From a virus (lineage: Duplodnaviria; Caudoviricetes): a stretch of DNA of 64,000 bases. The stretch lies in IMG/VR virus record IMGVR_UViG_2898615884_000001, positions 1 through 64,000 of that record. One strand, given 5' to 3'. The position numbers and the translations under genes were made by a program. Below the pieces are notes generated by a model, which did not search any database, had not been told where the DNA came from, and worked only from the letters and a program-made list of their open reading frames with translations. Below are positions 25,868-53,775 of the stretch, one piece after another (position 1 is the first letter of the stretch; the number at the start of each line of letters is the position of its first letter).

Positions 25868-26806
25868 TCAGGTGTTCGTGATCTTGATTCCGGCGCCGGG
25901 CTCCTGGATCACCGGGACCGTGAGCCGCCGGCCCCACAGCTCCCAAGCGTCCCGCTTGGCCTTGCGTTCGGACTGGACCTGGATCGCCATGTCCGACACG
26001 GCGTAGCCCGGGTCGACCTCCGCCTCGTCGGCCATCCCCCCGAGCTCCTCGTTGTCGATGATCCACACGTCGTCCGACGGCAGACTCGACAGCGGCGCGG
26101 GCACCACGATCAGATCCCCGATGATCTCGATACGGCCGTTGTAGACCGGGTTGTCGGTCGCCTCCCGCCGACGCAGCGACGCGATCGTGGGGTCGGACGC
26201 CATGTAGGCGTACTTGGTGTTGCTCATGACGATGATGTTCGGGTTGTAGCCCTGCTTGAGGTCCACGACCTGCGCCTTGGCCAGCTCGATGTCCCGCAGG
26301 ATCATCGCCGCCGTCGCGTTCGCCCACCGGTTCGAACCCGACCCGGTCGCGGCCTGCGTCGCGGTGATCGCCGACCCGACCGCCGACATGGTGATCCCGT
26401 CGACCTTGGTGATGATGGTGTTGACGGTCTTGCGGAGCGCGCGGTCCAGCGCGTCGCCGCCCTTCACCGTCCGCTTGATCGACTCATCAGTGAGGAACGT
26501 GCCCTGCCCCCACTTCTCGACCGCGGCCAGCGCGCCCGTCCCGGGAGAGGGGGTGTCCATCGGGTACTCGCTGCCGGGCGCGACCGACTCCACCGGGCGG
26601 GTGTTGACGATCGGCTCGGACACCTCGTAGGCGATCGCGCCGCCCGAGGTGCGGAACCGCTGGGTCAGCACCTGATCGGAGATGAACCGCAGGTCGACGA
26701 AGGTGCGAAGACGTCGGGTGATCTGCGCCGGGGACTGCAGGAGCCTGCTGATGGTCAGCAGGTCGCCGCTGAGACTGGGTGCCCCCGGCGGGTAAGCGTC
26801 AGGCAT
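25868..26806 (-). CDS. Major capsid protein (HK97 fold inferred)
   Basis: 312 aa after the cement gene; VAPGSEYP, EKWGQGTFLTDES; RBS GAAAGGAAG. Confidence 0.9.
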   Translation of the reverse strand: MPDAYPPGAPSLSGDLLTISRLLQSPAQITRRLRTFVDLRFISDQVLTQRFRTSGGAIAYEVSEPIVNTRPVESVAPGSEYPMDTPSPGTGALAAVEKWGQGTFLTDESIKRTVKGGDALDRALRKTVNTIITKVDGITMSAVGSAITATQAATGSGSNRWANATAAMILRDIELAKAQVVDLKQGYNPNIIVMSNTKYAYMASDPTIASLRRREATDNPVYNGRIEIIGDLIVVPAPLSSLPSDDVWIIDNEELGGMADEAEVDPGYAVSDMAIQVQSERKAKRDAWELWGRRLTVPVIQEPGAGIKITNT

Positions 26807-28959: not shown

Positions 28960-31334
28960 GAGTCCGGCCAGACCGCGACAAGCACGCCGCGGCACCGCAG
29001 GCGGCCGAGACATTCGATGTAGCCGCCCGCCGCGTAGGCGGCGCCTGCCGCCTCACGGGAGTCGAACTCTGTGCCATCGATCTCGACGCAGTTCTTGCAG
29101 GTGCCGGTGTCCAGGACTTCCGACGCGACGTAGGTGGCCTCACCGGCGTCCATGAGGGTGGCCCAGCGGCCGTGCGCCTGGGCGGCCCACAGCGCCCCGC
29201 CGAGCTGCTCACGCGGCCACGCATCCGTCAGCCCCTCCATATGGGAGCGGACCAGCCCGGCGACGTCCTCGCCCGACGCGCCGGGAGTCCAAACGCGTAG
29301 GGCTTCCCGCCCGGCCGCGTCCGCCGTGGCAGAACCCATCAGCGCGGCGATGGTGTCGGCCAGCGCACGGAGTGCGTCCTCGTCCAGTTCGGGCGTGGCC
29401 AGGTCGACACCTTGGGACGCGGCCTCGGCCACGACCTGCCCGGCGCCGGTCGAGGCCATCGCCAGCAGGGCGGGCGCCAGGACCTCGGCCGCGGCGGAGG
29501 TGTCGAGGGTGAGCGCAGCGAGCTGCGCCGTCTCCGCCGCCACGACGGCGGCAGCGACCTGTTCGACGAGCGCGTCGGTCTGCGCGGCCTGCACCGCCGC
29601 CCACGCGGCGAGGAGATCCTCCAGCGCGGCGTCGTGGTCGGAGGCGATCTGGTCGGGGTCCATCCCGGCGGCGGCCTCGACGGTGGTGAGCTGCCGATGC
29701 CCGGCTGCGCTGTCACCCGCCGCCCGAACATCGCCGCGCCGCGCCGTGCGCCTGCGGGGGCTGGCGCCGCGCGGCTGAGCGGCGGCTCGCGCGGGCGGCG
29801 CAGGCGGCGCGGCGCCGGCGTCGGGGAGCCTGGCGCCGGCGCCCTGCGGAAGGGCAGGCAGGCCGAGCCGCGCGCGGCGCTCATCGACGGTCAAAAACGC
29901 TTCGCCGCGCGCGGTCGCCGCCGCGCGTGCCTGCACCTGCGGCGCCGTCGGCGCGGTCTCGGTGTCGGGTGGCGGCGCGTACCGCAGGTTGCTCGGCGTC
30001 GGAAGCTGGGCCCCCGCACCGCCTGGCAGCGGCGGCAGATTGATCTGCGCGCGGCGCTCGTCCACCGTGAGGATGCCGTAATCCAGGTCGTAGGCGTACG
30101 ACCGCTCCGCCGTGGCGATGTCGTCCCGCTTGCGCTTGGGCAGCCGGTAGGTGCCGCGCAGGTACGCCTCCAGGTCGTCGTCGGGGTGGATGACCCCCGA
30201 GGACACCAGCCCCTGAAGGGCCTCGGCCGTGAGGTCGTGGCGGCGGCCCACGTCGGTGCACACGACCCTCGGCGCCGGCTCGTCCTCACCCCAATTCACG
30301 TCAACGAGGTCGGTGACGATCCCGGTCAGGCCGGGCTGCCCGGAGGTGGCGACGTCGGCGACCTCGTCCGCGACCGCCTGCAGCGACAGCAGGAACTGGT
30401 CGATGAACGATTCGCCCAGCGCGCGGCTTCCGGTCTGGGTCTGGCCGAGGTCGAGGAACCCCGCCAGGGCGAGGGTGGACATCTGCTGGTCGAGGTAGCG
30501 GACGAACTCGACGGTGTCCGGGACTGATCCGCTGAGGCCGGTGAGATTGACCTTGAAACCGTGCGGGACACCGACCCCGGCCTGGTCTCCGACTCGCATC
30601 GAGGACGCGAGCCGCTGCGCCTCCTGCACCTGCGCGGGCGTCGCGCCCGTGGGGGCCTCGACGTTCGGGACACCCATCCCGAACCGCCGGTTCGATGTGG
30701 CGTGCACACGCCACATCTCGTGTTTCAGCAGCCAAGGCCCGTAGGCGGCGCGGAGCAGAGACCGGCCGGTCCAGGTGGCGCCCTCCCGGTCATGCGCGTA
30801 CCACACCAGCCGGTTCGCGGTCATTGGTGTCGTCCACGCCAGGTCCTGGGTGACGCTTTGGATGGTGCCGTCGCGGTTCAGGTTGATCATCGCGAGCGTC
30901 CACGGCATCCGCTCGCCCAGGTTGATCAGCCGTGCGAGGCCGCCGCGGATCTCGTAGCGGCGCTCGAACACGGCGTGGCCGTAGACCAGGGACAGCAGGG
31001 CGAGGCGGAGATGCTCGGCCCAGGACACACCACGGCGGCGCGCCGGGCCAGGCACGGCGTCGGCGCCGAGGATCGGCACGCCGAGGTCGTCAGCCACGAC
31101 CTGGACGACCTCGTCGCGGCACCCGGCGGGATCGATGGCCCAGGTCGCGCGGCGGATCGGCAACGAGTAGGCCTTGAGAATCGCCGTGAGCTTGGGGTCG
31201 TGGCGCATCCGGGAGTACATCCGAACGCTGAGGGGCCAGGCCAGGTCGGGGACGAACTCGTTGACGTCGACCCACTGCGCGCCGACGACGTCGGCGAAGT
31301 CGATCGTTCCGAGGTCCTTCGTGGGTGGCGCCAT
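28956..31334 (-). CDS. Portal protein (DUF935/Mu gp29-like) fused to a MuF-like minor head domain
   Basis: YSRMRHDPKL, LLRAAYGPWLLK, GSRALG; C-terminal CKNC...CLGRLRCRG. Confidence 0.85.
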   Translation of the reverse strand: MAPPTKDLGTIDFADVVGAQWVDVNEFVPDLAWPLSVRMYSRMRHDPKLTAILKAYSLPIRRATWAIDPAGCRDEVVQVVADDLGVPILGADAVPGPARRRGVSWAEHLRLALLSLVYGHAVFERRYEIRGGLARLINLGERMPWTLAMINLNRDGTIQSVTQDLAWTTPMTANRLVWYAHDREGATWTGRSLLRAAYGPWLLKHEMWRVHATSNRRFGMGVPNVEAPTGATPAQVQEAQRLASSMRVGDQAGVGVPHGFKVNLTGLSGSVPDTVEFVRYLDQQMSTLALAGFLDLGQTQTGSRALGESFIDQFLLSLQAVADEVADVATSGQPGLTGIVTDLVDVNWGEDEPAPRVVCTDVGRRHDLTAEALQGLVSSGVIHPDDDLEAYLRGTYRLPKRKRDDIATAERSYAYDLDYGILTVDERRAQINLPPLPGGAGAQLPTPSNLRYAPPPDTETAPTAPQVQARAAATARGEAFLTVDERRARLGLPALPQGAGARLPDAGAAPPAPPARAAAQPRGASPRRRTARRGDVRAAGDSAAGHRQLTTVEAAAGMDPDQIASDHDAALEDLLAAWAAVQAAQTDALVEQVAAAVVAAETAQLAALTLDTSAAAEVLAPALLAMASTGAGQVVAEAASQGVDLATPELDEDALRALADTIAALMGSATADAAGREALRVWTPGASGEDVAGLVRSHMEGLTDAWPREQLGGALWAAQAHGRWATLMDAGEATYVASEVLDTGTCKNCVEIDGTEFDSREAAGAAYAAGGYIECLGRLRCRGVLVAVWPDS

Positions 31335-31443: not shown

Positions 31444-33075
31444 TCACCAGTCCATCGACATGTAGTCGCCGGTGCGCGGCTCCGCCCCTGTGGAAGCCGT
31501 GTACGCCTGCCCGATCGCGCCGTCGTCCGCAGGTCCTGCTGTGCGGCGCTGGTCGACCTGGTCGGCGGTCTCCTGCGGCAGCCAGTGCGCCGCGACCACC
31601 CGCGCCGCATAGGAGAGGGTGTCGACCTGGTCGTCGTGTGCCGCAGATGGAAACGCAGCCAACTCGTCGCACCACTCGTCCAGCCAGTCCGCTTCAGCCG
31701 GGAACCACACCCGGCCCGCCTTCAACCGGGACGTCGCCGGGACCGCGCGGGTGACCTTGTCGGTGTCCGCCGCTACCGGCTCAACCGGCAGTCCGGCCTT
31801 CGTCGCGTCGATCACCATCGTGGAGCTGATGAACGACTTCTCCACGAATACCGTGGCCAGCGCCCACCGAGAGACCAGAGGCCGGGCCAGGTCCCAGTGG
31901 TCCTCCTCGACCACGCGCTTCCGGGCGCGGTCCAAAAGGATCAGGTCACCGTCCGGGCTGATCGCCCACGCCGACACAACCGTGTAGTCCGCCGACCGCT
32001 TCGTGGACGCGGCCAGATCGACCGTGGCCAATCGCCAGCAGTCATCCAGGAATACCGGCCGGCTGTCGAGGTCGACACGCCGACCATCGGCCGTGCCGTG
32101 CCTGCTCAGGTCGGCTGGCATCGGGTTCCAGTACCGGAAAGTCGAACGGCGGAACATGTTGCCTTCGGCGGCGACCGGGGTCTGCTGGTAGATGCTCCGC
32201 CACACGTACGGGGAGCGCACCTCTTGCAGCCCGTGGAAGTAGCCGGGCTTGCGGTCCTGGACGGAGACGAGTTCCTCGCCTGGGGCGCGGCCGAGCGGAT
32301 CAACGCCGTCGGCAACCCACACCGTCTTCGCTCGGCCGTCAGCGCCCTTGATCTGGACGCCCTTGCCCGCGACCGCCGGGATCGACACGACCCGCCACCG
32401 ACCCGGCTCGCGTGTCACCAGCCGCCCAGCAAGGTCGTCGCAGTGCCAGCGCGTCATCATCAAGCACACCTTGAAGCGCGACGATCCTCGGGTTGAGCCG
32501 TTGGACTCCCACCAGTCCCAGGCGGCATCGCGGTAGGTCGCGGACTCTGCTTCGGCTCGACCGCGGAACGGGTCGTCAATGATCAGCACATCGACTTTTT
32601 CGCCGGTGATCCCGCCCGCGATCCCGGCGCATATGACGCCGCCGCCATCTTCGGTCTCCCAGTACCCGGCCGCCCGGGTGTCTTTCCTCAGCCGGATCCC
32701 GAGCTGCGGGTTGTCAGCCGCGTCACGGCGGATGGCCTTGCCCCAGCGGAGCGCCTTGTTGTCGTTGTAGGAGACGATCCCGATGCGCAAGGTCTTGTCG
32801 TGCGCGAGAAGCCAGAGCGGAAACCTTCTGGATACTCTCTGTGATTTCCCCTCTTGAGGGGGGCAGTAGAGCTGGAGGCGGTCGGTGTCGCCGTCGGCGA
32901 GCTCGACCAGCTCGCGGTCGATGAGGTCGAGCGCGGCGGTCTGCCGGGTGGCGCGGTCGATCGCGCGGGCGAGCTGCCCGGGTGTCGACCACCGGCGGCC
33001 TCGGGGCGGGGGTGGCGGCTCGAAGTGCGCCAGGATCGCTGCGGCGACACCTTGGACGGGGTCGAGGACGGTCAT
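31444..33075 (-). CDS. terL: Terminase large subunit
   Basis: Walker A-like PPQEGKS, LIIDDP, LMMTRWH, nuclease motif FPSAAHDDQVD. Confidence 0.95.
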   Translation of the reverse strand: MTVLDPVQGVAAAILAHFEPPPPPRGRRWSTPGQLARAIDRATRQTAALDLIDRELVELADGDTDRLQLYCPPQEGKSQRVSRRFPLWLLAHDKTLRIGIVSYNDNKALRWGKAIRRDAADNPQLGIRLRKDTRAAGYWETEDGGGVICAGIAGGITGEKVDVLIIDDPFRGRAEAESATYRDAAWDWWESNGSTRGSSRFKVCLMMTRWHCDDLAGRLVTREPGRWRVVSIPAVAGKGVQIKGADGRAKTVWVADGVDPLGRAPGEELVSVQDRKPGYFHGLQEVRSPYVWRSIYQQTPVAAEGNMFRRSTFRYWNPMPADLSRHGTADGRRVDLDSRPVFLDDCWRLATVDLAASTKRSADYTVVSAWAISPDGDLILLDRARKRVVEEDHWDLARPLVSRWALATVFVEKSFISSTMVIDATKAGLPVEPVAADTDKVTRAVPATSRLKAGRVWFPAEADWLDEWCDELAAFPSAAHDDQVDTLSYAARVVAAHWLPQETADQVDQRRTAGPADDGAIGQAYTASTGAEPRTGDYMSMDW

Positions 33076-43531: not shown

Positions 43532-44233
43532 TTACACGCCAGCATCCCTCAGGATTCTCCCGACCGTTGCGATGCCGCGTCCGACCTCCCGCGCGATTGC
43601 AGGATGGGTGCGTCCTTCCCGACGGAGGGCGACGATCCGGGAACGCTCGTCGTCCGAGAGGCGCGTCTGCCGCAGTCCGCGTGAGCGCCGAGCTTCCTTC
43701 TGGCGCCGGTTGCTCCGTTCGTTCTCGCATGTCCGGCAGCGGTGCACCTCACGCCCCTGCTGGTGTACTACCACCAGGTTGTCGCCTTCCTTTGCATGGC
43801 CTCTAGGGCAGTGGGTCTTACGCGGAGGTCGGTAGGCGCGGCCGCGAGCGACCGCGTCTCGCACGTTCTCCACGACCGTTCCCGGATAGAGGTGGGCGGG
43901 ATTGACACAGGGCGGGGTGTCACAGTGATGGAGGATCCATATGCCGTCTGGGATTGGCCCGCGCTCGCGTCGCCATGCTTCTCGATGTGCGAGGTGCTTG
44001 CTCTTCCAGCGTCCGTAGCCCTTCGGGTCGGCTTTGCCTGTCCAGAGCCAACATCCGTAGTCGTGCGTCTTCTCGACCTGGCTCCAGAAGTCGTCGACGA
44101 ACCTGGGGGCGATCTCGCGTTCCTCGACCGGGGTGTGGTCGAGCCAGTAGCGATAGCACCGGCTGCACATCCCGCGCGTTAGCTTTCCGCCTGTGCCACA
44201 TCCTGGGGTTGAGCAAATACGGTCCTGGGTCAT
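43532..44233 (-). CDS. HNH homing-type endonuclease with C-terminal HTH
   Basis: AHREAW...ILHHCDTPPCVNPAHL.PGT..ENVRD; KTHCPRGH. Confidence 0.9.
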   Translation of the reverse strand: MTQDRICSTPGCGTGGKLTRGMCSRCYRYWLDHTPVEEREIAPRFVDDFWSQVEKTHDYGCWLWTGKADPKGYGRWKSKHLAHREAWRRERGPIPDGIWILHHCDTPPCVNPAHLYPGTVVENVRDAVARGRAYRPPRKTHCPRGHAKEGDNLVVVHQQGREVHRCRTCENERSNRRQKEARRSRGLRQTRLSDDERSRIVALRREGRTHPAIAREVGRGIATVGRILRDAGV

Positions 44234-45420
44234 GGTGCTCCGGTGATCGTCTGCTCGTGCATCCGCTCGCGCAGATGCTCGGGCGTGTGGTGGGTGTGCT
44301 GGTCGGCTGGTTCAGGTTCCCACCGGCCGGGGAGGGCGGGGGGTCGTTTGGCAAGGCGGGCGGCTTCGGACTCGGCGGCGATCTGGGCGAGGTGCTTCCT
44401 CGCGGCGGCGATGGTTTGGGCGACGGAGGGGCGGGGCCCGTCATGTTCGGGTTGCCGGTCGGGCGTGGCGGCGGCGAGCGCTTCGGCGACCGAGCGGCTG
44501 TCGGGCAGCGCGGGCCCGGTCGGGGTGCGGTCGTCGTACGGGTCGTCGTCGTCGTCCGGCGCGGTCGTGGTGGCGGTCGAGTGGAGCTGGACGGCCTCGA
44601 CGATGTCGAGCAGATCGGTTTTGGGTGACCCGTCGGGGTGGACGGTCATCGACTCCATGTACTTCACGAGGTCCACGACTCGCGTGCCCGCGCGCCCCCG
44701 CACGACCTCGATCACGGCGGCGGCTTCCTCGTCGGTCAGTCCGTAGCGCTCGTGAAGCCAGCGGGTGCCTTGCCGGTCTCGCGCGCGCGTCGACTGACTG
44801 ATCGGTGTATCTGGTCGGTGGACCTGATCGGTGGGCGGACATGCTGCATGTCCGGTTGAGGCGTCAGGATGTCCGGTTGAGGTTCGCGTTTTGTCCGGTT
44901 GAGAATCCTCATCCGGACACTCATAGGTGTCCGGATGAGGCGCGGTCTCAACCGGACGTTCTTGGGTGTCCGCTTGAGACGGTTCGGCGGGCAGCGCTTC
45001 GGCCGCCATCTCGGGAAGTTCGCAGTCTCCCCACGCGGGCGCCAGGATCTCGGCGAGCCGCGCGAACACTGCGGCCGGGAACGTGGCGATGTAGACGCTG
45101 GCGCGGGTCGTGCCGTCGCCGTTGCGGCCGCCGCGCTGCACGCACATCAGCCAACCGCCGGCGATCGCCTGGTCGAGATGCCTGCGCAGCGTCCGCTCCG
45201 TACCGCCCCGCGCGAGGACGAACCGGTGATACCCGGGGCGGCCCTGGGTGCCGTCGGGGTTCATGTACAGCGCGAGGACGCACAGGGTGTACCGGACCTT
45301 CTCGGGCAGGTCGAGGCCAGCGATGTGCAGTGCCTTCTGCCAGATGAAGACTCCCCGGGCGCCGAGCAGCGCGGCCGGTACGGGTTCCGGCGCCGGAGCG
45401 GCACGCGGACTTTCGGGCAT
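44230..45420 (-). CDS. Replication initiator (N-terminal winged HTH, lambda O-like organisation)
   Basis: VRYTLCVLALYMNPDG..RPG...RTLRRHLDQAIAGGWL; internal iteron cluster. Confidence 0.75.
   Translation of the reverse strand: MPESPRAAPAPEPVPAALLGARGVFIWQKALHIAGLDLPEKVRYTLCVLALYMNPDGTQGRPGYHRFVLARGGTERTLRRHLDQAIAGGWLMCVQRGGRNGDGTTRASVYIATFPAAVFARLAEILAPAWGDCELPEMAAEALPAEPSQADTQERPVETAPHPDTYECPDEDSQPDKTRTSTGHPDASTGHAACPPTDQVHRPDTPISQSTRARDRQGTRWLHERYGLTDEEAAAVIEVVRGRAGTRVVDLVKYMESMTVHPDGSPKTDLLDIVEAVQLHSTATTTAPDDDDDPYDDRTPTGPALPDSRSVAEALAAATPDRQPEHDGPRPSVAQTIAAARKHLAQIAAESEAARLAKRPPALPGRWEPEPADQHTHHTPEHLRERMHEQTITGAP
44849..44978. repeat. Iteron cluster, putative replication origin
   Basis: TGTCCGG(T/A)TGAG direct at 44849, 44870, 44892, 44928, 44967 and inverted at 44908, 44947; first three spaced 21-22 bp. 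Confidence 0.75.
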
Positions 45421-45545: not shown

Positions 45546-45950
45546 TCAGGCGTCGGAGTCGGTTTCCGCCGCGCGCTCTTCCTCAGCGATCTCGGCGCCG
45601 GCCTTGATGAGGCGGGGCCGGTGGATCATCGTGTTGGTCGGCCGCTTGGCCTTGCCGGCGAGGCAGGGACCGCTCTCCACTTTGCAGCTGGGGCACGGCA
45701 GGGTCAGCGCACGCGCGCGGATGCGGGCCTTGCGCTCTTCCCAGGCGGCGTCGGCGCGGTCGATGAGTTCCTGCGGCGGTCGTTCCGGGAGTTCCGCGCC
45801 GGGGCGGCGCATGAAGTAGGCCCAGAGCGCCTCGACGAGCTGGCTGCGGGTCGTGCCCATGGCCTCGGCGATGAGTTCGCCGGGCTCCCAGTTGTCGTCC
45901 GAGAGGGTGACGGACCGGTGTTGGCGACCGGGTTGGGGCTGTCTGGGCAC
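45546..45950 (-). CDS. Ribbon-helix-helix regulator fused to a Zn finger (Kor-like)
   Basis: HRSVTLSDDNW...GTTRSQLVEALWAYF; C-terminal CPSC...C...H; divergent from the tra operon. Confidence 0.7.
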   Translation of the reverse strand: MPRQPQPGRQHRSVTLSDDNWEPGELIAEAMGTTRSQLVEALWAYFMRRPGAELPERPPQELIDRADAAWEERKARIRARALTLPCPSCKVESGPCLAGKAKRPTNTMIHRPRLIKAGAEIAEEERAAETDSDA

Positions 45951-45965
45951 GAACCGGAGTTTCTC

Positions 45966-46051
45966 AGGTCCACGTGTGCTTATCAACGCGCTGCCTTTCC
46001 GTGCGGTGAGTTGAGGTCCACGTGGACCTAAGTTAAGGTCCACGTGGACCT
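45966..46051 (+). promoter_or_regulatory. tra-operon promoter with two perfect 16-bp palindromes AGGTCCACGTGGACCT and one partial site
   Basis: Palindromes at 46014-46029 and 46036-46051; partial AGGTCCACGTG at 45966-45976; TTGAGG(46011)-N17-TAAGGT(46034). Confidence 0.85.
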
Positions 46052-46083
46052 AATCGCAACCCCGACATGCCAAGGGAGATCAG

Positions 46084-46890
46084 ATGCCCCGCACCCTCGT
46101 TGCCGCCGCCCCCGGCCCGGCGCGTCTCGACATCACCGTCCCTTTCGGACACGTCAAGATCGCCGCCGCGCCCGGCTGCGCCACCGCCACCCTGACCCTG
46201 ACCGCGACCACCACCGACCCCGCGCTCGCCGACCTCATCGACCGCGCCACCCTCCACACCACCGACCACGGCCTCGTCGTCGCCGTCCCCAAACTCCCCG
46301 GCACCGCCACCATCCGCACCAACGGCAACTTCGGCATCCAGGTCCAGGCCAACCACGGCAGCGGCACCTTCATCGCGGGCGACTACCACGGCGCGAACGT
46401 CATCAACGGCCAGCACATCCAGCCCGGGGCCCCGCCCCGCGCGGTATCCGGGGACATCGAGGTCGTCGCGCTCGTACCGCCCGGCAGCGACATCGAGGTC
46501 GACGGGAACGCCGCCGACCTGAGCGCCAAGGGCCGCCTCGGCTCTGTCACCGCCCACGCCAGTTCGGGGGACGTGGACGTGGACACCGCCGACACCCTGA
46601 CCGTCCGCACGACGTCTGGTGACGTCCATGGCGCCGAGGTCACCGGCCGGACCGACATCACCACCACCGCCGGCGACATCAGCATCGCTAGGTTCGGCGG
46701 CACGGGCGACTTCGTCACATCCTCGGGAGACGTCACCGTCGCCGCGATTCAGCGGGGTAACGTCCGCGCCCGCACCTCAACCGGGGACATCCGCGTCACT
46801 GCCGCGCCTGGTATCGCCGAGGGGTTGACGGTCTGGGCCCGGAGCAGCGTGGGGTGTATCCGCGTTCCGGACGGGGCGGCTGCGGGCTGA
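46084..46890 (+). CDS. DUF4097-like beta-strand repeat protein
   Basis: Repeats such as VTAHASSGDVDV, VRTTSGDV, ITTTAGDI, ARTSTGDI. Confidence 0.85.
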   Translation: MPRTLVAAAPGPARLDITVPFGHVKIAAAPGCATATLTLTATTTDPALADLIDRATLHTTDHGLVVAVPKLPGTATIRTNGNFGIQVQANHGSGTFIAGDYHGANVINGQHIQPGAPPRAVSGDIEVVALVPPGSDIEVDGNAADLSAKGRLGSVTAHASSGDVDVDTADTLTVRTTSGDVHGAEVTGRTDITTTAGDISIARFGGTGDFVTSSGDVTVAAIQRGNVRARTSTGDIRVTAAPGIAEGLTVWARSSVGCIRVPDGAAAG

Positions 46891-46940
46891 CCTAGGCGTT
46901 CTGCGTTTTCTCACGTCGTTGCGGATTTCTTGGAGGACTT

Positions 46941-48314
46941 GTGCGGGATACCGCAGAGCAGGCTCCCGCCGGGGCCGAGGCCGACCCGCCACCCGCCCCA
47001 CCCCCCGAACACCACAACCCCGCGCCCGCGGAGGACATCGAGCGGACGCCACAGCCGGCCGAGGACGCGCCCCGTCCCGCGCAGGTGGTCGCCGGACCCT
47101 CGGCAGCGATGGCCGCCGAGGTCGCGACCGCCGTGCCCGCCGCGCTGTTCCACGCCGGGGGTTGGATCGGTCTGGCCGCCGGCGCGGCCGCCGTGGTCGG
47201 GACGGGCGCGGCCGGGGTCGCCGGGCGCCGCCGGGTGGGTACTTCAGGGCGGGCGTGGACGCGGACCCGGACGTGGTCGACGGGCGGCCGGTCGAGCGCG
47301 GCGAAGATGCGGATGCCCGGCACAGGCTCGACGCGAGCGAGTGGGAGCCGGACGCCGCAGTCGTTCGGACGCTCACCCGCCAAGGGCGGCGCCACGGGCG
47401 GCCGGGCCGCTGGCATGCGCGCGGGCGGGGTCGCGGGACGGGCAAGGGCCGGGCGGCTCGGATCCGCGGCACGCCGCGCCACGGCCAGCCCAGCGGTGAG
47501 CGGCCCCGCCCGAGCAGCCCGCCGCGCCACCGCCGCGACCGGCCGAGCCGCGCGCTCGGGATCCCGGAGCACCCGACGCGGCATGGACCACGCGACGACC
47601 GCCGCCATCCGGAACGCCCGCGCCGCCCGCGCCGCACACCGCGCCGTCGCCGGCGGCGGCACCGGACGCGACGCCGCACGCGCCGCACGCGCATCCCTGA
47701 AGGATTCCCACGCCCACCCCACCCGGATCCGGTGGCGGCGCCTCGCCGGGGCGGGCCTGTGGAGCGCGGCGGCCTGGACCTACGGGCGGAGCTACACCGC
47801 GAGCCGGACACTCGCCCGGCGGGCGATGGCACGCCTACGCGGCCAGGACCCGGCGGACACCGACGCCGAGCGCGACCAGCCGCGGATCGAAACAAAAGTG
47901 AACCGGCCGACCGACCCGGCGGCCAACACCAGCAGAGGAGAAGACATGACCCGACGTGAGAGCGGAGGTGGCGTGCCGTCGTTCGTCGCAACGGCGCAGG
48001 AGCATGCCGAGTCCCTCGCCCGGTACGAGCCGCCGCCCGGCGCGGGCGGGATGGTGCAGATGTACCACGACATCGAGATGCTGCCCGACGCGCTGGCGTG
48101 GATCGCCCAAGGGTTCGAGCGGATGGCCACACGGTGCCGTAAGGAACTGCCATTGCACCCCGCGATCAGTGAGCTGGTCGTTGAGCTAGCGAAGACCCAG
48201 ACCCGCATGGCGTCGGTCGCGGCGGAGATCAAGCCCGCGATCACCAAACTGCACGAGGAGGACCTGAAGCGCCACGAAGCGCCGCGTCCCAGCGAAGAGC
48301 GGTGGAACGTCTGA
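46941..48314 (+). CDS. TraA-like plasmid transfer protein (possible nested start at 47946)
   Basis: Low-complexity Arg/Ala-rich N-half; C-terminal HEEDLKRHEAPRPSEERW; coupled to traB. Confidence 0.6.
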   Translation: MRDTAEQAPAGAEADPPPAPPPEHHNPAPAEDIERTPQPAEDAPRPAQVVAGPSAAMAAEVATAVPAALFHAGGWIGLAAGAAAVVGTGAAGVAGRRRVGTSGRAWTRTRTWSTGGRSSAAKMRMPGTGSTRASGSRTPQSFGRSPAKGGATGGRAAGMRAGGVAGRARAGRLGSAARRATASPAVSGPARAARRATAATGRAARSGSRSTRRGMDHATTAAIRNARAARAAHRAVAGGGTGRDAARAARASLKDSHAHPTRIRWRRLAGAGLWSAAAWTYGRSYTASRTLARRAMARLRGQDPADTDAERDQPRIETKVNRPTDPAANTSRGEDMTRRESGGGVPSFVATAQEHAESLARYEPPPGAGGMVQMYHDIEMLPDALAWIAQGFERMATRCRKELPLHPAISELVVELAKTQTRMASVAAEIKPAITKLHEEDLKRHEAPRPSEERWNV

Positions 48315-50521
48315 TGGGCGGCGTGGATTGGCGGTGGCGGCACGGGACGGTGTCCGGGCCCTTGCACGCGACGATCGCGCTGGCGACCGCCTACGAAGTC
48401 GGGACGCTGCCCGTCCTGGACGTCTCCCCGGAATGGGTCCTGATCGGCGGCGCGACCGCGGCCGGGGTGACGAGCTGGCGCGCGGCCCACGACGGCCGCT
48501 CCTGGCTCGGCCTCGGCTACCGGATCGCAGGCATCAGCGGCAGCACCCTCTGGCTGGCGCAGGCCGTCACGACCGGGTGGACGGCCACGCTCGGGTGGAC
48601 GCTCGCGGCGGGCGCGGTCACCGCCGCCGGGCTTGCGCGCCCGATCCGCGCCCGCGACCGCGTCGTCGCCGAACGGCACGCCGCACAGGAAGCCGCGGCG
48701 TCCGTAGCCGCCGTGGACGCGGCCGAGCAGGAACGCTTGACGGGCATCGCCGGGGAGTGGGTCACCCGGATCGAGCGGGTGACCCAAATCGTGCTGCGCC
48801 CCCTCGACCCCCGCACCGGGAAGCGGCCACCAGTGCAGCAAGTCGTCGTCGCCGTCGAGCACTGGATGTTCCCCGGCCCCGGCGGTGTCGAGCGGTGCAC
48901 CGGCTACACCCTGGAACTGGTCCTCCCGACCACGGGCGTGACGTGGCAGACGCTCTCCAATTACCAGGACAACCTCGCCGCGGCCGCCGACCTGCCCCAG
49001 GGGTGCGGGGTCGAGATCGGGCCGGGCAGGTCACGGCGCCGCGCGCTCATCGAGGTGTCCATCGTCGATGCGCTCCGCGACGACATCGCCCTCCCACTGC
49101 CCACCGAACCCCGCACGATCAACAACCCGATCCCCGTCGGAGTGGTCCGCAACGGCGCGCAGGCGGACGTGCCGCTGCGCTACAGCTGCGCCGTCCTGGT
49201 CGGCGCGACCGGGTCGGGGAAGAGCAACGAGCTGCAGACGATCGTGGCCGGGCTGCTGTCCTGCCATGACGTGCTGGTCCTGGTGATCGACTACAACGGC
49301 GGCGGCGTCGCGTTGCCGTGGCTGTCGCCCTGGGTCGACGGGACGATCGCCCGGTCCCCGATCCTGTGGGTGGCCGACAACGAACACGAGGCCATCATGA
49401 TGTGCGACTGGCTGATCGCCGCGATCGAGCACCGCAAACGGGCCTACCACGCCGCGAACCAGGCCCGTGACGACGACAAGCTCGCCGCAACCCCCGCCAC
49501 CCCGCAGCTGGTGCTGGTCACCGACGAAGCGGGCGCGACTGGCCGCGAGGTCACCAAACGGATCGCGCAGATCTCCGACCGCGGACGCGCGGCGGCGGTG
49601 CGGACGGTGACGTGCGCGCTGCGGGCGCTGTCGGAGTACATCCCGACCGAGGTCCTCGCCCAGGCGCAGGTCCGCATCGGCATGAAGGTCAACGACCGCA
49701 AGGAGCTGGGCTACCTCTACGACTGGGCGGGGGGCCGGGGCGGGCCGTCGCCGGAGGACGCGCCGCACACCGGCTACGGGCATGTGCGGTCGGGGCAGGA
49801 GCCGCCGCGGGTGTTCAAGGGGTATCGGACGTCGCCGTCGATGATCCGTGCGGTGGCGGTGGCGCAGGATGCGTGGCGGCCGGAGCTGGATGAGGTGACG
49901 TTGCGGATGTCGGCGGAGTGGCAGCGGGTGTTCGAGGAGCGGTGGCAGCGCTCGGCGCATCTGCTCGCGGCCGCCGGTGGACGAATGCCCGTCCCGTCGG
50001 CGGGTGGTGGAAGCCCTGAGCGGCGGGAGCGGCAGGCCCCGACGGGGCGGGGTGCGCTCCCGCCGACGCCCCCGGACGGACCGGACGCGGGGTCGAAGTT
50101 CGCCGGGCTGAACGACGCGCTCGCCGACCTGGACGCCGCCGCCGAACGGCTCCGCAACGCCACCCCGGACACGCCCGCCGGGCCGCGCGACGACGCCGCC
50201 GACGCCGCCGCGTTCGAGGCGATCGTCGCCTACGAGGTCGTCGTCCCCGAACTCGTCGTGCGCGTCCTCGCTGCGATGGGCTCCGCCGAGCGGATGCACA
50301 CCCGGCAGATCGCCGAGAAGATCGGCAGCCGCGCCGAGTCGCTCGGGGGGCTGCTGTCCCAGCTCGACATCCGGCCGCTCAAGTCGGACTTCACGGTGGA
50401 CGGGCGCCGCGGCCGCGGGTACGAGCGCGCGGAGGTCGAGGCGGCCGCCGAGCGGATCCGGTCGGGTGAGCTGGTGCCGCCGGAGGAGGTCGCGCGGTGG
50501 CGCCCGGACGCGCCGGCCTGA
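48314..50521 (+). CDS. traB: FtsK/SpoIIIE-family conjugative DNA translocase (Streptomyces TraB type)
   Basis: N-terminal TM helices, Walker A GATGSGKS, Walker B LVLVTDE, C-terminal winged-helix region. Confidence 0.85.
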   Translation: MGGVDWRWRHGTVSGPLHATIALATAYEVGTLPVLDVSPEWVLIGGATAAGVTSWRAAHDGRSWLGLGYRIAGISGSTLWLAQAVTTGWTATLGWTLAAGAVTAAGLARPIRARDRVVAERHAAQEAAASVAAVDAAEQERLTGIAGEWVTRIERVTQIVLRPLDPRTGKRPPVQQVVVAVEHWMFPGPGGVERCTGYTLELVLPTTGVTWQTLSNYQDNLAAAADLPQGCGVEIGPGRSRRRALIEVSIVDALRDDIALPLPTEPRTINNPIPVGVVRNGAQADVPLRYSCAVLVGATGSGKSNELQTIVAGLLSCHDVLVLVIDYNGGGVALPWLSPWVDGTIARSPILWVADNEHEAIMMCDWLIAAIEHRKRAYHAANQARDDDKLAATPATPQLVLVTDEAGATGREVTKRIAQISDRGRAAAVRTVTCALRALSEYIPTEVLAQAQVRIGMKVNDRKELGYLYDWAGGRGGPSPEDAPHTGYGHVRSGQEPPRVFKGYRTSPSMIRAVAVAQDAWRPELDEVTLRMSAEWQRVFEERWQRSAHLLAAAGGRMPVPSAGGGSPERRERQAPTGRGALPPTPPDGPDAGSKFAGLNDALADLDAAAERLRNATPDTPAGPRDDAADAAAFEAIVAYEVVVPELVVRVLAAMGSAERMHTRQIAEKIGSRAESLGGLLSQLDIRPLKSDFTVDGRRGRGYERAEVEAAAERIRSGELVPPEEVARWRPDAPA

Positions 50522-50523
50522 CC

Positions 50524-50726
50524 CCCACACCCCCTCCCACACCCGGGGTGTGGGAGGGGGTGTGTCAGGGGTGTGGGACCCACACCCACCCCCACACCCC
50601 CCACAGCCCGCTGACCTGCGTAAACCACACCCCCACACCCCCCACACCCCTCCGTGCGAGGGGCCCCTTCCCCGGGCCAGGGGACCGCGCACACCCCCCG
50701 GCCGGGAGGGGTGTGGGGGGTGTGGG
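50524..50726. repeat. clt-like tract of CCCACACCCC repeats including a perfect 40-bp palindrome
   Basis: About 11-12 copies by manual count (4 inverted); palindrome at 50526-50565; starts 3 bp after the traB stop. Confidence 0.8.
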
Positions 50727-50746
50727 AGACCGAGAGGACACACACG

Positions 50747-51628
50747 ATGAGCACGCAGAAACGCCCCGGCCTGATCTGGGCGTGCGCGGTCCTGACCATC
50801 GCAGCCGCCAACCAGCTCCTCTGGAACCTGTGGCACGCCTTCGACACCGGCATGCCGCACCCGCTGGCCGTCGCGACCGGCGCAGTGCCCGTGCTGCTCG
50901 CGCTCGGCACCTCCGCGCTCGCGGCCAGGGTCCGGTGCGGCAACGTGCAGCGGACCCTGACGTACGGCGTGATGCTCGCGGCGATCGGGATCTCGATCCT
51001 GGCGCAGTACGACCTGCTGATGCACTGGATGGGGAGCAAGGCGGTCGCGGTGTTGTTCCCGACCGTGGGCGACCTGGCGACGCTGATCGCTCTGCACGTG
51101 TTGATCGCCGACCCGGTCCCGGTGCGGGTGGCGGCACCGGTCCGTACGAAGGAGAAGACCCGTACGACGACGGTCCGTACGGCGCAGCCGGTGATCTGTG
51201 AGAGGTCGATCGGGACGCCGTACGTACGGGCGCCGCAGGGCGTTCTGCGGGCCGTACGGAACGAGCAGTACGTGCCGGAGCGTACGGGCGAAGAGACCCG
51301 TACGCCGGAGCCGCGTACGCCTTCCGGCGAGCCCCGTACGGCCGAACACGCGGCCCGTACGCGCGCCGTGGTGTCCGCCCGTACGACCCGTACGGACCAG
51401 GTCAGCGCACCCGTACGGGGCGTACGGGAAGGCCGCGCGCACTGGGTCGAGGTGCTGGCCGACGAGATCCGTACGGCCCGTACGGAAGGCCGTACGTGGG
51501 AACCGGCGTACGTCGAGCTGGAGGCCCGTACGGGGTGGGGCCGGTCGTGGTGCGAGAAGACCGTACGGGCCGCGCGCGAGGCGGCCGAGGAACGTACGGG
51601 CACCCGTACGGGCACCGACGACGCCTAG
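50747..51628 (+). CDS. SpdB-like/DUF2637 membrane protein with repetitive linker and C-terminal HTH
   Basis: Four N-terminal TM helices; RT/VR-rich linker; ELEARTGWGRSWCEKTV; RBS GAGAGGA. Confidence 0.7.
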   Translation: MSTQKRPGLIWACAVLTIAAANQLLWNLWHAFDTGMPHPLAVATGAVPVLLALGTSALAARVRCGNVQRTLTYGVMLAAIGISILAQYDLLMHWMGSKAVAVLFPTVGDLATLIALHVLIADPVPVRVAAPVRTKEKTRTTTVRTAQPVICERSIGTPYVRAPQGVLRAVRNEQYVPERTGEETRTPEPRTPSGEPRTAEHAARTRAVVSARTTRTDQVSAPVRGVREGRAHWVEVLADEIRTARTEGRTWEPAYVELEARTGWGRSWCEKTVRAAREAAEERTGTRTGTDDA

Positions 51629-51645
51629 CCAAACGGGGCCGTACG
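51143..51645. repeat. Dense array of CGTACG palindromes (mostly CCGTACGG-like) inside the coding sequence
   Basis: About 24 copies in about 500 bp by manual count. Confidence 0.85.
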
Positions 51646-51681
51646 AGGCGGCCCCGTACACACCAAGCGAAGGAGAAGGCA

Positions 51682-52047
51682 GTGCCGACGATCATCACCT
51701 TGCCGGTCGAGATCTCAGAGGACGTCGTCCGCGCGGCGGCGCAGGGCCGAGTCCGGCAGTGGGTCGGGCCGGAGATCGCCGAGGACGTCGTACGCGCCGT
51801 CTTGGCCGACGTCCTGGGAGAGGAGAGCGACGGCCAGCTGCCCGAGCAGTCGAGGCCGGACGCGGACGAGGACGCCGTGGCGGTGTTGATGCGCAAGTAC
51901 CTCGGAGTGGACCCGGCGACCGTGAGCGTGCGGAAGGTCCGGGCGGACCTGGGCGGCGCTCGGCACGACCGAGCGGTGCGCGTGAAGGACCTGTGGACGG
52001 CGAGGTACGCGGCGGCGTTCGGCGGCCGCGCGACCGTACCGGCCTGA
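51682..52047 (+). CDS. Hypothetical protein with HTH-like C-terminus
   Basis: RBS AAGGAG before GTG 51682; VSVRKVRADLGGARHDRAVRV. Confidence 0.65.
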   Translation: MPTIITLPVEISEDVVRAAAQGRVRQWVGPEIAEDVVRAVLADVLGEESDGQLPEQSRPDADEDAVAVLMRKYLGVDPATVSVRKVRADLGGARHDRAVRVKDLWTARYAAAFGGRATVPA

Positions 52048-52105
52048 ATCTCTGAACGGACCGGCCGTCGAGCCGGTGGAACCGATCATCGAAAGGACAG
52101 GAACC

Positions 52106-52378
52106 ATGCCCCCCACAACCCAGCAGCCGGCCGCTTGGCCGGAGGGCGTCATCGCCCGGTACCTCACCGTCGGCGGCGCGACGGTCGATCTGATGCGCAG
52201 CCGGGCCGGGATCACGGCGGTCTGCCGCGGCTGCCCCGTCGCGCACGCCACGCGGGCGTTCGAGAGGGCGGGGTCGGTCCGGCAGGACGGCGGCAAGCGG
52301 GCGACGGAGCAGGCGCAGGAGTGGGCGCAGACGCATGCGGAGCGGTGCCGCGCCATGCCCCGCCCGGACAGCGAGTGA
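52106..52378 (+). CDS. Small protein typical of actinomycete transfer regions
   Basis: WPEGVIARYLTVGGATVDL...C.GC...AQEWAQTHAERCRAMPRP. Confidence 0.7.
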   Translation: MPPTTQQPAAWPEGVIARYLTVGGATVDLMRSRAGITAVCRGCPVAHATRAFERAGSVRQDGGKRATEQAQEWAQTHAERCRAMPRPDSE

Positions 52379-52382
52379 CGTC

Positions 52383-52814
52383 GTGCCCGCGAAGACGCTC
52401 GACATCCGCGCCTACACACCCGCCACCGCGCCACCCTGGGCCGCCGAGATCGTCACCGCGATCCGGGGAGGCGACCTCGCCAAGGGCAGCCGCCTGTTCC
52501 GCGAGGCAGCCTCGACGTCCGGTATCGAGCGCGCGGTCTACGCGGTCGCGGCGGTGGTCGAACCCGGCGCCGGTCAGCTCACGGTCGGCCCGGGGCCGCT
52601 CGTGTACGGCAACCCGCTGCGGACCGGCTACTGCTGGCGCTGCGGGACGTGCCTGGCCACCTTCCGCCGGGGCGGCCCGGCGCCTACCGCGGGCGTGAAC
52701 TACAAGACCGCCCAGAGCGCGCGCGGCGCCGCAGTGAAGCACGACCGCGAGGCGCACGGGGGTCGCTCGACGGTGCACGAGCTGAGCCCGAGGGGGCGTG
52801 ACCTGCGGTGCTAG
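52383..52814 (+). CDS. Hypothetical protein with CxxC
   Basis: YCWRCGTC; overlaps the start of the next gene. Confidence 0.55.
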   Translation: MPAKTLDIRAYTPATAPPWAAEIVTAIRGGDLAKGSRLFREAASTSGIERAVYAVAAVVEPGAGQLTVGPGPLVYGNPLRTGYCWRCGTCLATFRRGGPAPTAGVNYKTAQSARGAAVKHDREAHGGRSTVHELSPRGRDLRC

Positions 52815-53710
52815 GGAAGACGCACGCGCTGAGCGGCGCGATGATGTTCGGGGTGCTGGCGGTCCCGGCCGCGCCGGTCGCGCACCTGTCCCTCCCCGAG
52901 CTCGCCCTCGGCACCGTCGTGTGTGCGGGTGCGGCGATGCTCCCGGACATCGATCACCGCGAGTCGCATGTGGCGCGGACGCTCGGGCCGCTGTCCCGGG
53001 GGCTCGCGTGCGCGGTCGCGTGGGTCGCCGGCGGGCACCGCAGGGGTGTGCACTCGCTCGTCGGGGTGGCGGTGGTCGCGCTGCTGGCGTTCCTCGGCGC
53101 CGCGCTCCGCTCGGGGAGCACGAGCTGGGCGGTGGCCGGGATCGCCCTGGCCGCCGTCCTCGCGGGCTCCGGGCTGCTGGCCGGGATGGCGTGGCCGGGT
53201 GACCGGCGGCGCGGCCGACGCGTCTACCCCGAACGCTGGCACGGACCCGCGGCCGCCGGGGTGTTCGGCGTCGTCGCCCTGGCGCTCGCCGTCGGCGCGG
53301 CCGTGGACCCGCACGCGACCGGGACCGGCGTCCTCGCGGTCCTGCTCGTCCTCACCCTTGCGTCGGCGGCGAGGGTCTTCCACATCCGCCGGTGGACGCG
53401 CCTGCGGACCGAGGTGGACGACCTGCTGCCGATCCCGGTCACGTTCGTCCTACTCGTCGGCGACACGAACCTCCGCGTGGTGCCCTTCGCGGTCGTCCTC
53501 GGCGTCATCGTCCACATCGCCGGAGACATGGCCACCGTCGGCGGCTGCCCGCTCGGATGGCCGTGGTCGCTGACCGCGCGGGGGCCTCGCGCGTTCAGGA
53601 CGAACTCGCCCATCGAGCGGGGGCCGGTGACGTGGGCGTGCATGGTGATCTTTGCGGTGACCGTGTTCTGGAACAGCGGGATCGCGAACGCCATCACCAG
53701 GCACGGGTAG
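52808..53710 (+). CDS. Membrane metal-dependent hydrolase (YdjM-like)
   Basis: MLGKTHALSG, LPDIDH, HRRGVHSL, HIAGDMAT..GCPL.WP. Confidence 0.9.
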   Translation: MLGKTHALSGAMMFGVLAVPAAPVAHLSLPELALGTVVCAGAAMLPDIDHRESHVARTLGPLSRGLACAVAWVAGGHRRGVHSLVGVAVVALLAFLGAALRSGSTSWAVAGIALAAVLAGSGLLAGMAWPGDRRRGRRVYPERWHGPAAAGVFGVVALALAVGAAVDPHATGTGVLAVLLVLTLASAARVFHIRRWTRLRTEVDDLLPIPVTFVLLVGDTNLRVVPFAVVLGVIVHIAGDMATVGGCPLGWPWSLTARGPRAFRTNSPIERGPVTWACMVIFAVTVFWNSGIANAITRHG

Positions 53711-53723
53711 CGGCGCGGCGGCG

Positions 53724-53754
53724 ACGGCCCCGAACCACACCGGTTCGGGGCCGT
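53724..53754. terminator. Bidirectional terminator
   Basis: Perfect 13-bp arms ACGGCCCCGAACC/GGTTCGGGGCCGT between convergent genes. Confidence 0.8.
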
Positions 53755-53775
53755 TCGCATGCTCGGCGTCAGCGC

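Follow-up and report, generated by a model that had tools for sequence, protein, structure and literature searches.

Can an integrating phage of a mycelial actinomycete spread not only in virions but also without them, by means of a DNA pump of the plasmid type? The question is raised by a 64,000-nucleotide stretch of tailed-phage DNA (Caudoviricetes; positions 1 to 64,000 of IMG/VR record IMGVR_UViG_2898615884_000001, hereafter the window), in which a plus-strand operon (46084-53710) sits amid the minus-strand early genes of a prophage island. As a rule, gene flow by phages and gene flow by conjugative elements are considered apart from each other. Capsid-free spread is on record for two plasmid-phages of Streptomyces, but not for a phage that integrates. 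A previous sequence-only reading of the window regarded the operon as a Streptomyces-type conjugation module, and the element as a candidate conjugative phage-plasmid or a hybrid of a phage and an actinomycete integrative and conjugative element (AICE). All parts of the operon listed by that reading were found in their places. On balance, it is probable that the operon is a module for translocation of double-stranded DNA, of the kind formed by the plasmid protein TraB and its cis-acting site clt, and that it belongs to the phage itself; the prophage may spread also without virus particles.

The operon encodes an FtsK-like pump related to plasmid transfer proteins

The following features of the operon are central to this question:

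46941-48314, plus strand: protein X, 457 aa, no family match, full-length frame conserved in relatives
48302-50521, plus strand: pump, 739 aa, FtsK/SpoIIIE (Pfam PF01580, 2.7e-7), full-length match to phrog_31069 (1.9e-111)
50522-50746, no strand: clt-like tract of 225 bp with 11 CCACACCC octamers, 7 forward and 4 reverse
50747-51628, plus strand: membrane protein with four transmembrane segments (4-TM protein), conserved NLWHAF motif and variable soluble C-terminal half
51143-51645, no strand: second array, 24 CGTACG palindromes in 503 bp

The start of the pump gene overlaps the stop of the X gene. The pump contains a Walker A motif (GATGSGKS at residue 301) and a Walker B motif (LVLVTDE at residue 403). 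In an AlphaFold2 model based on 17 homologues (mean predicted local distance difference test score, pLDDT, 79), four N-terminal helices are followed by a long coiled-coil helix, the FtsK alpha/beta motor, a disordered linker and a C-terminal winged helix. The best Foldseek matches in the PDB were FtsK motors on double-stranded DNA (6t8b, E 1e-14); TcpA, a coupling protein of conjugation, ranked next, followed by EccC and EssC. The N-terminal helices (16-30, 39-60, 64-87 and 91 onward in the model) carry few charges, and their positions resemble those of the transmembrane segments of pWTY27 TraA (68-90 and 102-124; PMC3583192). The C-terminal 120 residues, modelled separately on 34 homologues (pLDDT 90.8), were predicted to adopt the topology H-beta-H-H-beta-beta. 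The Foldseek matches listed for this domain were mostly winged-helix DNA binders of the MarR/ArsR type, the best being an HpaR-DNA complex (probability 0.99), and the model thus suggests a winged helix. TetR repressors, obtained when a profile of the domain was compared with PDB sequences, were set aside as helix-composition matches that give at most a hint of a helix-turn-helix. Tra of pIJ101 shows the same pattern as the pump in Pfam, namely a weak FtsK_SpoIIIE match (PF01580, 9.3e-10) together with a weak MarR match.

The sequence-only reading left open whether the ATPase is a conjugative one. Its identity is 38.5% to the homologue on plasmid pSQ10, 35% to gp102 of phage Hiyaa and 29% to pZL12.71c (motor domain), and 30-38% to genes of small actinomycete plasmids. 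One plasmid of the family, pAGRA3207_2 (16 kb), also carries a GntR regulator and a NUDIX gene, and a Streptomyces AICE-like locus of the family contains GntR, WhiB, DUF2637 and NUDIX genes. A hidden Markov model of the family's motor domain gave strong matches to about 55 loci in Streptosporangiales and Streptomyces, to the plasmids pSQ10, pAGRA3207_2 and pADI95-16c, to the phages Hiyaa and P1312, and to pZL12. The same model matched the host genome's own EccC genes marginally, and neither chromosomal FtsK nor Tra of pIJ101 was detected with it at E 1e-3. When 1.84 billion representatives were searched exhaustively with phmmer, 763 matches were obtained, of which 229 clusters had E<=1e-30. 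In a quick maximum-likelihood tree the window pump fell among Actinomadura phage members that form a well-supported clade, whose sister is a Nocardiopsis clade with plasmid pSQ10. Elsewhere in the tree plasmid and phage members interleaved; long branches lead to pZL12 and to the outgroups, and the deep placements are unsure. An assignment of the pump to chromosomal FtsK or EccC was rejected: the ATPase groups with plasmid-borne and pZL12 tra genes, as the conjugation hypothesis had required.

Among the 104 species genomes of the genus at least six carry a family member (E<=1e-30), four of which belong to the phage clade; the count of six is a lower bound, the first pass having used a stricter threshold. 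Two family members (L061 and L080) lie on contigs of metagenome-assembled genomes labelled Pseudomonadota and Terriglobales. Both are probably mis-binned contigs of actinomycetes or phages; L080 hardly differs from L081, which lies on a metagenome-assembled contig assigned to Streptomycetaceae.

A conserved octamer array follows the pump gene

Plasmid clt sites consist of direct 8-bp repeats that are bound by the winged helix of TraB (PMC4447253). The repeat tract noticed in the sequence-only reading lies directly behind the pump gene and is dense: the octamer CCACACCC occurs at 0.07 per kb in the genome, which gives about 0.016 copies expected in the tract, and its 11 copies amount to roughly 600 times the genome density. 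The tract further contains a central conserved GCTGACCTGCG box and a GC hairpin, and it ends at the ribosome-binding site of the 4-TM gene. In kind, the octamers are similar to the repeats CCGCACA[C/G][C/G] of pJV1 and TGACACC of pWTY27 (PMC3583192).

The layout of the tract is kept in the related loci of Actinomadura opuntiae (L035), a 55-kb contig (L036) and A. meridiana (L037), where direct octamer pairs, inverted octamers, the GCTGACCTGCG box, three octamers, a hairpin and two inverted octamers by the ribosome-binding site follow one another. Behind the pump gene of Actinomadura sp. 21ATH (L039) the same heptamer is enriched. Across the family, 50 loci were compared for repeated heptamers: in 27 of them the 300 bp that follow the pump gene are among the top 5% of windows, and in 10 they rank first. 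In about 50 loci the array motif changes clade by clade along with the putative recognition helix of the winged helix:

LGQLLSQ-type helix: motif CACACCC
VRELLR-type helix: motif CGGAAC
VRARM-type helix: motif CGTAAC
LAALLRPLGVTTLPRAF-type helix: motif CCCGGAC
LAALLGA-type helix: motif CCCCCAC

By analogy with the plasmids, this co-variation is the pattern to be expected of a TraB protein and its clt, and makes the winged helix of the pump and the CCACACCC array a testable pair.

Protein X and the 4-TM protein flank the pump and its array

Protein X consists of a Pro-rich N-terminus, one transmembrane helix, a long basic region rich in Arg, Gly and Ala, and a conserved C-terminal domain of about 115 aa that ends in PRPSEERWNV. 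In 47 of 55 loci the gene immediately before the pump gene encodes a homologue of this domain; the pair occurs on small plasmids of 7-29 kb and in the phages Hiyaa (as a 122-aa gene), Keanu, Galactica and P1312. A lenient Pfam scan of the X homologues and of the C-terminal piece of the pump returned nothing useful. In hhalign the X domain aligned with residues 459-601 of pZL12.72c (93%, E 3.4e-7). Conjugal transfer of pZL12 is reported to need the tra gene and two adjoining genes (PMC3583192), and pZL12.72c is presumably one of these two.

The gene for the 4-TM protein follows the tract and matches the position of Spd proteins, which are likewise encoded downstream of the pump in the same operon. 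A hydropathy scan scored three of its membrane segments, and inspection of the sequence gave a fourth (LIWACAVLTIAAANQLLW); the relatives keep the membrane domain. The four helices assigned by the sequence-only reading thus stand, whereas the likeness to SpdB that it proposed did not hold up in sequence comparisons. In a lenient scan the 4-TM proteins matched no Pfam family at E<=1 (PF10935 included), and pIJ101 SpdB gave nothing useful. The only lead from the 4-TM protein to DUF2637 came from language-model (0.86) and structure comparisons (TM-score 0.59).

The second array lies largely within the 4-TM gene. Its CGTACG copies occupy all three reading frames of the gene (16, 6 and 2), and the array extends 12 bp beyond the stop codon; the rest of the window contains 13 more copies. 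Arrays are found at the same place in the relatives, with CGTACG in A. meridiana (L037:12352-13308) and 21ATH (L039, about 1.2 kb downstream of the pump gene), CGGACCG in A. opuntiae (L035:12374-13657) and CGCCAGC on the 55-kb contig (L036:12366-13382). The motif of the second array does not change in step with the recognition helix of the pump, so that it is probably read by another protein. The nearest precedent is sps of pIJ101, a palindrome inside spdA2 to which SpdA2 binds and which has an effect on stability (Thoma et al., 2014, PMC4170104). Both are palindromic motifs within a coding sequence; sps is a 12-bp palindrome in 2-3 copies, whereas the window array has a 6-bp palindrome in 24 copies and no SpdA homologue was identified. 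Several of the second-array motifs resemble type II restriction sites.

The core is native to a lineage of Actinomadura phages

No match to the module was obtained by megablast in phage or plasmid collections. Closely homologous pumps (47-65% identity) are encoded in A. opuntiae, in A. meridiana, in Actinomadura sp. 21ATH and on contigs assembled from sequencing runs. In these relatives a plus-strand core of X, pump, a gap of about 215 bp and the 4-TM gene lies amid small minus-strand early genes, and the early genes common to relatives and window include DUF6221, DUF6011 and a gene resembling the C-terminal domain of RNA polymerase alpha. Besides 21ATH (L039), the core occurs in a further locus, L106.

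In A. opuntiae, homologues of the window phage's TerL (56% identical) and capsid protein (64%) are encoded 18-25 kb from the pump, as in the window phage, and the 55-kb contig carries Terminase_3 and portal genes within about 5-8 kb of it. A. meridiana and 21ATH gave no match to the terminase or capsid proteins of the window phage. Judged by these sequences, the module travels with the early region of a mosaic phage group. Since the core is found at the same place in related Actinomadura phages and prophages, the conserved unit of X, pump, octamer tract and 4-TM protein is native to the phage lineage and is not a nested AICE.

The element is an apparently intact integrated siphovirus

The window corresponds to G000:C6:154403-218402 in a 9.16-Mb actinomycete genome of 71% GC, for which gene calls were based on third-position GC bias. 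From the nearest homologues, which come from Actinomadura species, the host is most likely an Actinomadura. One genus-mate genome gave a match at the coordinates of the tra gene of the Actinomadura graeca plasmid pAGRA3207_2. Two genomes marked as unpublished (G019 and G024) support none of the conclusions. The boundaries of the island were set by synteny with three genus-mates (G014, G009 and G006), which is lost at window coordinate -4475 and regained at 84227, giving a size of 88.7 kb. A glycosyltransferase gene flanks the island on one side and the start codon of an acyl-CoA dehydrogenase gene on the other. Features that bear on the nature of the island are:

82696-84096 (window coordinates), right island end: tyrosine integrase (PF00589, 1e-22), the sole integrase found
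7605-33401, minus strand: siphovirus morphogenesis and lysis block, PHROG E-values 1e-26 to 1e-145, all frames open
31444-33075, minus strand: TerL, PHROG match, unbroken
28956-31334, minus strand: portal, PHROG match, unbroken
27277-28959, minus strand: protease, PHROG match, unbroken
25868-26806, minus strand: major capsid protein, PHROG match, unbroken
16819-21453, minus strand: tape measure, PHROG match, unbroken
15877-16806, minus strand: Dit, PHROG match, unbroken
10427-13033, minus strand: hydrolase fibre; the block also encodes tail proteins
8759-9691, minus strand: endolysin, PHROG match, unbroken
44230-45420, minus strand: candidate replication initiator, weak match to phrog_391 'replication initiation O-like' (2.7e-5)

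Searches with exact matches or short words detected no att repeats. An imperfect 21-bp direct repeat with 16 of 21 positions identical (TATTGGAGGAAGGGACCGATA and TATCGGTGGAAGGGTCGAATA) is present at both island junctions, and no third copy was found inside the island with up to 5 mismatches allowed. The repeats, at window coordinates -4481 and 84217 (G000:C6 about 149922 and 238619), lie within the promoter and ribosome-binding region of the acyl-CoA dehydrogenase gene and not in a tRNA gene, and the insertion supplants the gene's native upstream sequence. No attP junction or second copy of the element was present in the assembly. With one integrase, one att pair, unbroken virion genes and no attP junction or second copy, the element is therefore apparently a single, intact, integrated siphovirus prophage. 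Two elements in tandem at one att site were considered and rejected. The absence of breaks in the morphogenesis genes had been noted before and was borne out, and no sign of the extrachromosomal form for which the sequence-only reading had suggested a test was found in the assembly.

The early genes of the island include types typical of actinophages (DUF5131, a PD-(D/E)XK nuclease, DUF6197, DUF433 and an HNH endonuclease). An iteron-bearing rep gene had been described next to the operon, and four copies of ATGTCCGGTTGAGG are indeed present in the weakly rep-O-like gene at 44848-44940, with inverted copies up to 44962. The iterons are 14 bp long and spaced 21-22 bp apart, which resembles an origin within the initiator gene, as in lambda. 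No Par genes were found among the proteins scanned, which were part of the gene set. Past the acyl-CoA dehydrogenase gene and outside the island, a 425-aa gene (window coordinates 85600-86877; L012:5600-6877, minus strand) has a weak integrase-like match (2.5e-4) and may be a remnant of another element.

A candidate divergent regulator and palindromes precede the operon

Two features upstream of the operon are candidates for its control:

45546-45950, minus strand: candidate divergent regulator, 134 aa, N-terminal ribbon-helix-helix-like part and Cys-rich zinc-binding segment
46014-46051, no strand: candidate operator, two perfect 16-bp palindromes AGGTCCACGTGGACCT at 46014 and 46036, 22 bp apart

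The 14-bp core of the palindrome occurs exactly twice in the 9.16-Mb genome, both times upstream of the operon, and a degenerate third copy lies at 45967-45980. The operator-bearing promoter of the sequence-only reading was recovered as far as these palindromes are concerned, but a simple sigma-70 scan detected no promoter hexamers. The regulator gene is likewise present, with a match to Pfam Phage_zn_bind_8 (4.5e-5) that at 23.5 bits stays below the cut-off of 24. Its homologue in A. meridiana, 47% identical, is also encoded divergently upstream of the module. Other palindromes of 14-16 bp precede the X gene of the relatives: GGTACACGTGTACC, GGTGGGTACCCACC in two copies, and GGTGCATATGCACC. 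They are located at L037:8615, L035:8449 and 8493, and L036:8592 and differ in each (GGTnnnnnnnnACC-type). In L036 and L037 the 5' leaders contain GC-rich hairpins after the operator. Because the palindrome differs in each relative and A. meridiana keeps the divergent regulator gene, the two fit a co-evolving repressor-operator pair, analogous to the kil-kor pairs of plasmids.

A model for capsid-free transfer and its relation to known systems

In the mechanism that we propose, the prophage would excise or begin to replicate and the operator-bound repressor would be released, and the operon of X, pump and 4-TM protein would then be expressed. Pump hexamers, anchored in the membrane by their N-terminal helices, would dock via the C-terminal winged helix on the CCACACCC array of the circular phage DNA and pump unprocessed double-stranded DNA into the adjoining hyphal compartment or into a touching recipient hypha, with X and the 4-TM protein as envelope partners. 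The tyrosine integrase would afterwards re-establish the element. Spread would thus be possible both in virions and by capsid-free transfer, in line with reports on pZL12 and pFP4, but here for an integrating, AICE-like element. Because of the plasmid and pZL12 kin of the pump, capsid-free movement of the phage's own circular DNA appears the likeliest mechanism.

Two Streptomyces plasmid-phages, pZL12 (phiZL12, GQ919031; Zhong et al., 2010, J Bacteriol 192:3747) and pFP4 (Chen et al., 2012, Plasmid 68:170), are reported to conjugate and also to form particles (PMC4170104, citing Chen 2012; PMC3583192). The idea of a conjugating plasmid-phage is hence not new, and the gain lies in breadth and mechanism, not in principle. 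As in these precedents, a large tailed-phage genome (about 90 kb) carries an FtsK-like tra gene; pZL12.71c is homologous to the pump and pZL12.72c to the X domain, and the window element also has virion genes. However, pZL12 and pFP4 are extrachromosomal Streptomyces plasmids with ParAB and a GntR regulator near the tra region, whereas the window element is integrated by a tyrosine integrase in an Actinomadura-like host, its divergent regulator candidate is not of the GntR type, and octamers are densely arrayed behind its pump gene. What is new is thus an integrating element, the Actinomadura-like host and a well-defined clt candidate. The earlier proposal of a conjugative phage-plasmid or phage-AICE hybrid holds insofar as a TraB-type module is part of an apparently intact integrated siphovirus; the plasmid state known from pZL12 and pFP4 was not found, the element being integrated with att repeats and an integrase, and conjugation is one of two readings of the module.

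The second point of comparison is the TraB/clt/Spd system of plasmids (pSVH1, pIJ101, pJV1, pSN22, pWTY27) and AICEs, which is characterised by a membrane-anchored hexameric pump, cis-acting repeats, kil-kor logic and, in AICEs, integration (PMC4447253, PMC3583192, PMC3218068). The window module shares with it an FtsK-like pump with a C-terminal winged helix, a short-repeat site next to the gene, downstream membrane proteins in the operon, a putative divergent repressor with palindromic operators and, as in AICEs, integrase-mediated integration. It differs in that X is specific to the pump subfamily and that the carrier is an 89-kb siphovirus instead of an element of 9-24 kb. AICEs have been defined by Int, Tra (PF01580) and Rep (RepSA, RepAM or Prim-Pol) in one integrated element (Ghinet et al., 2011, PMC3218068). 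Here, a tyrosine integrase and Tra are present, the replication candidate is weakly phage-O-like with iterons and of none of the AICE Rep types, and the element is 88.7 kb long with virion genes.

The same pump family is present in isolated actinophages, namely the Streptomyces phages Hiyaa, Spocter, Galactica and Keanu and the Thermobifida phage P1312 (32-35% identity), where the genes are annotated merely as 'FtsK-like DNA translocase' with no assigned role. Homologues of SpdB2 on actinophages have been proposed to help phage DNA spread (PMC4447253). It is conceivable, though rather doubtful, that TraB/clt modules are a general device of phages in mycelial actinomycetes for moving their genomes between compartments and between hyphae, acting without capsids in lytic (Hiyaa) and temperate phages alike, and that the second array is a further cis site. 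If this were true, an active clt by the pump gene of an integrated prophage could also drive Hfr-like (high frequency of recombination) mobilisation of the adjoining host chromosome. Integrating siphoviruses that keep a plasmid-type DNA pump and its docking site would blur the line between phages and conjugative elements in mycelial bacteria, would account for many unexplained 'FtsK-like' genes of actinophages, and would bear on the spread of prophages and of neighbouring biosynthetic genes among antibiotic producers.

Several observations weigh against a TraB/clt-type transfer module. As to the pump, the motor, Walker motifs and modelled winged helix agree with the FtsK ATPase of the sequence-only reading, yet the N-terminal helices, which that reading had taken as transmembrane, are just moderately hydrophobic for a membrane anchor (Kyte-Doolittle 1.1-1.2), and the fold matches of the winged helix are weak (E 0.016 or worse). 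The best NCBIfam match is plasmid_TraB (NF041214) at 42.2 bits against an equivalog cut-off of 800, and by its sequence the pump represents a subfamily separate from curated TraB. Co-variation of array motif and recognition helix is partly due to shared descent, and no clear array was found right behind the pump gene in the Streptomyces clade, Hiyaa or pZL12. The 4-TM family gave hhalign probabilities of 0.5% with pIJ101 SpdB and 1.2% with a DUF2637 protein. In contrast to the regulators of plasmid kil-kor systems, the 134-aa protein is not of the GntR type, and no NUDIX/Pif-type family was matched among the proteins scanned against Pfam. Moreover, a circle of 89 kb is far above the typical size of AICEs. 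Finally, phage Hiyaa carries the pair of X domain and pump with no annotated integrase, and therefore conjugation of lysogens is not the sole role of the family.

Alternative explanations

The case of Hiyaa argues that the pump family also serves infection itself, and it leads to the most serious alternative, in which the same machine moves replicating phage DNA across septal cross-walls to many compartments of the mycelium and no conjugation from donor to recipient takes place. Polymerase, primase and helicases are all encoded by Hiyaa itself, and neither an integrase nor a repressor nor partition genes are annotated in its record; even so, the phage has the pump gene next to an X gene that consists of the 122-aa domain only, with no clear array downstream. 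FtsK-like genes recur without explanation in several Streptomyces phage papers, and plasmid TraB takes part in intramycelial spreading as well. Set against this, pZL12, the closest tested case, is reported to transfer conjugally by means of its tra locus (PMC3583192), and the sister clades of the pump reside on small plasmids, where transfer is the gene's only plausible use. The sequence does not separate conjugation from intramycelial spreading, and we regard spreading as the sole function as unlikely. In Hiyaa (L109, 49800-56661), PurA-like and PurB-like genes lie beside the phage's own polymerase gene and may relate to synthesis of a modified nucleotide.

It is improbable that the pump serves another phage function, such as segregation of phage DNA into spores or compartments, manipulation of host chromosome segregation or development, or exclusion of superinfecting phages or plasmids. 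PHROGs places phrog_31069 in the category 'moron, auxiliary metabolic gene and host takeover', phage papers tie FtsK-like genes of phages to host development, and the 24 CGTACG copies in the 4-TM gene recall the sps palindromes in spdA2 that affect plasmid stability (PMC4170104). However, an integrated prophage needs no partition system, the nearest relatives of the pump are plasmid transfer genes and not chromosomal FtsK or defence ATPases of the SffA or HerA type, and an array devoted to recognition of the phage's own DNA is in keeping with translocation of that DNA.

Very improbable is a module that arrived from a plasmid or AICE by recombination and is a passenger of no use to the phage. 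Exchange has evidently happened, as phage-borne and plasmid-borne pumps interleave in the tree, and the phage clade is present in just 4 of the 104 species genomes of the genus. Nevertheless, the proteins of the core are still 47-65% identical, their Walker motifs are intact and residues of the winged helix invariant, no frameshifts were seen, and the octamer array and the co-evolving operator are conserved across phages with different structural modules.

An independent AICE with its own att sites inside a defective prophage would agree with a module that runs opposite to its neighbours and has its own regulator and terminator, but it can largely be dismissed, as no integrase or att-like repeat flanks the module, the sole att pair (16/21) lies at the two ends of the complete 88.7-kb island and, with up to 5 mismatches allowed, is not repeated inside it, the relatives have the same core between homologous phage early genes, and the morphogenesis genes are unbroken.

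Local cargo genes and other FtsK-domain genes

The remainder of the operon consists of the following features:

46084-46890, plus strand: DUF4097 (toastrack, LiaG-like), first gene of the operon (Pfam 7.8e-12)
51682-52047, plus strand: small gene, 121 aa
52106-52378, plus strand: small gene, 90 aa
52383-52814, plus strand: small gene, 143 aa
52808-53710, plus strand: YdjM-family membrane protein, metal-hydrolase-like, last gene of the operon (Pfam PF04307, 6.2e-20)
53726-53752, plus strand: hairpin with an 11-bp perfect stem, GGCCCCGAACC-ACACC-GGTTCGGGGCC, no T-run

The sequence-only reading had recognised the DUF4097, small and YdjM genes correctly and had counted them as part of the module. 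No counterpart of any of them was present at the related loci examined; they therefore look like local cargo added to the conserved module. Two of the three small genes contain CxxC motifs. For the terminator that had been proposed behind the operon, a scan for T-run terminators reported none on the plus strand, the hairpin at 53726-53752 included; the hairpin itself is strong (RNAfold, -37.9 kcal/mol for the 50 nt of 53716-53765) and is the likely operon terminator. Beyond it, a minus-strand phage gene (54282-54677) encodes the C-terminal domain of RapZ alone (PapZ_C, 8e-18).

Elsewhere in the host genome, small FtsK-domain genes are located at C4:144284-144538 (L032), C33:370619-371098, C22:2670-3263 and C15:39570-40121. 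They probably belong to other AICEs or plasmids; one of them, L032, is distantly paralogous to the pump family (E 1e-24).

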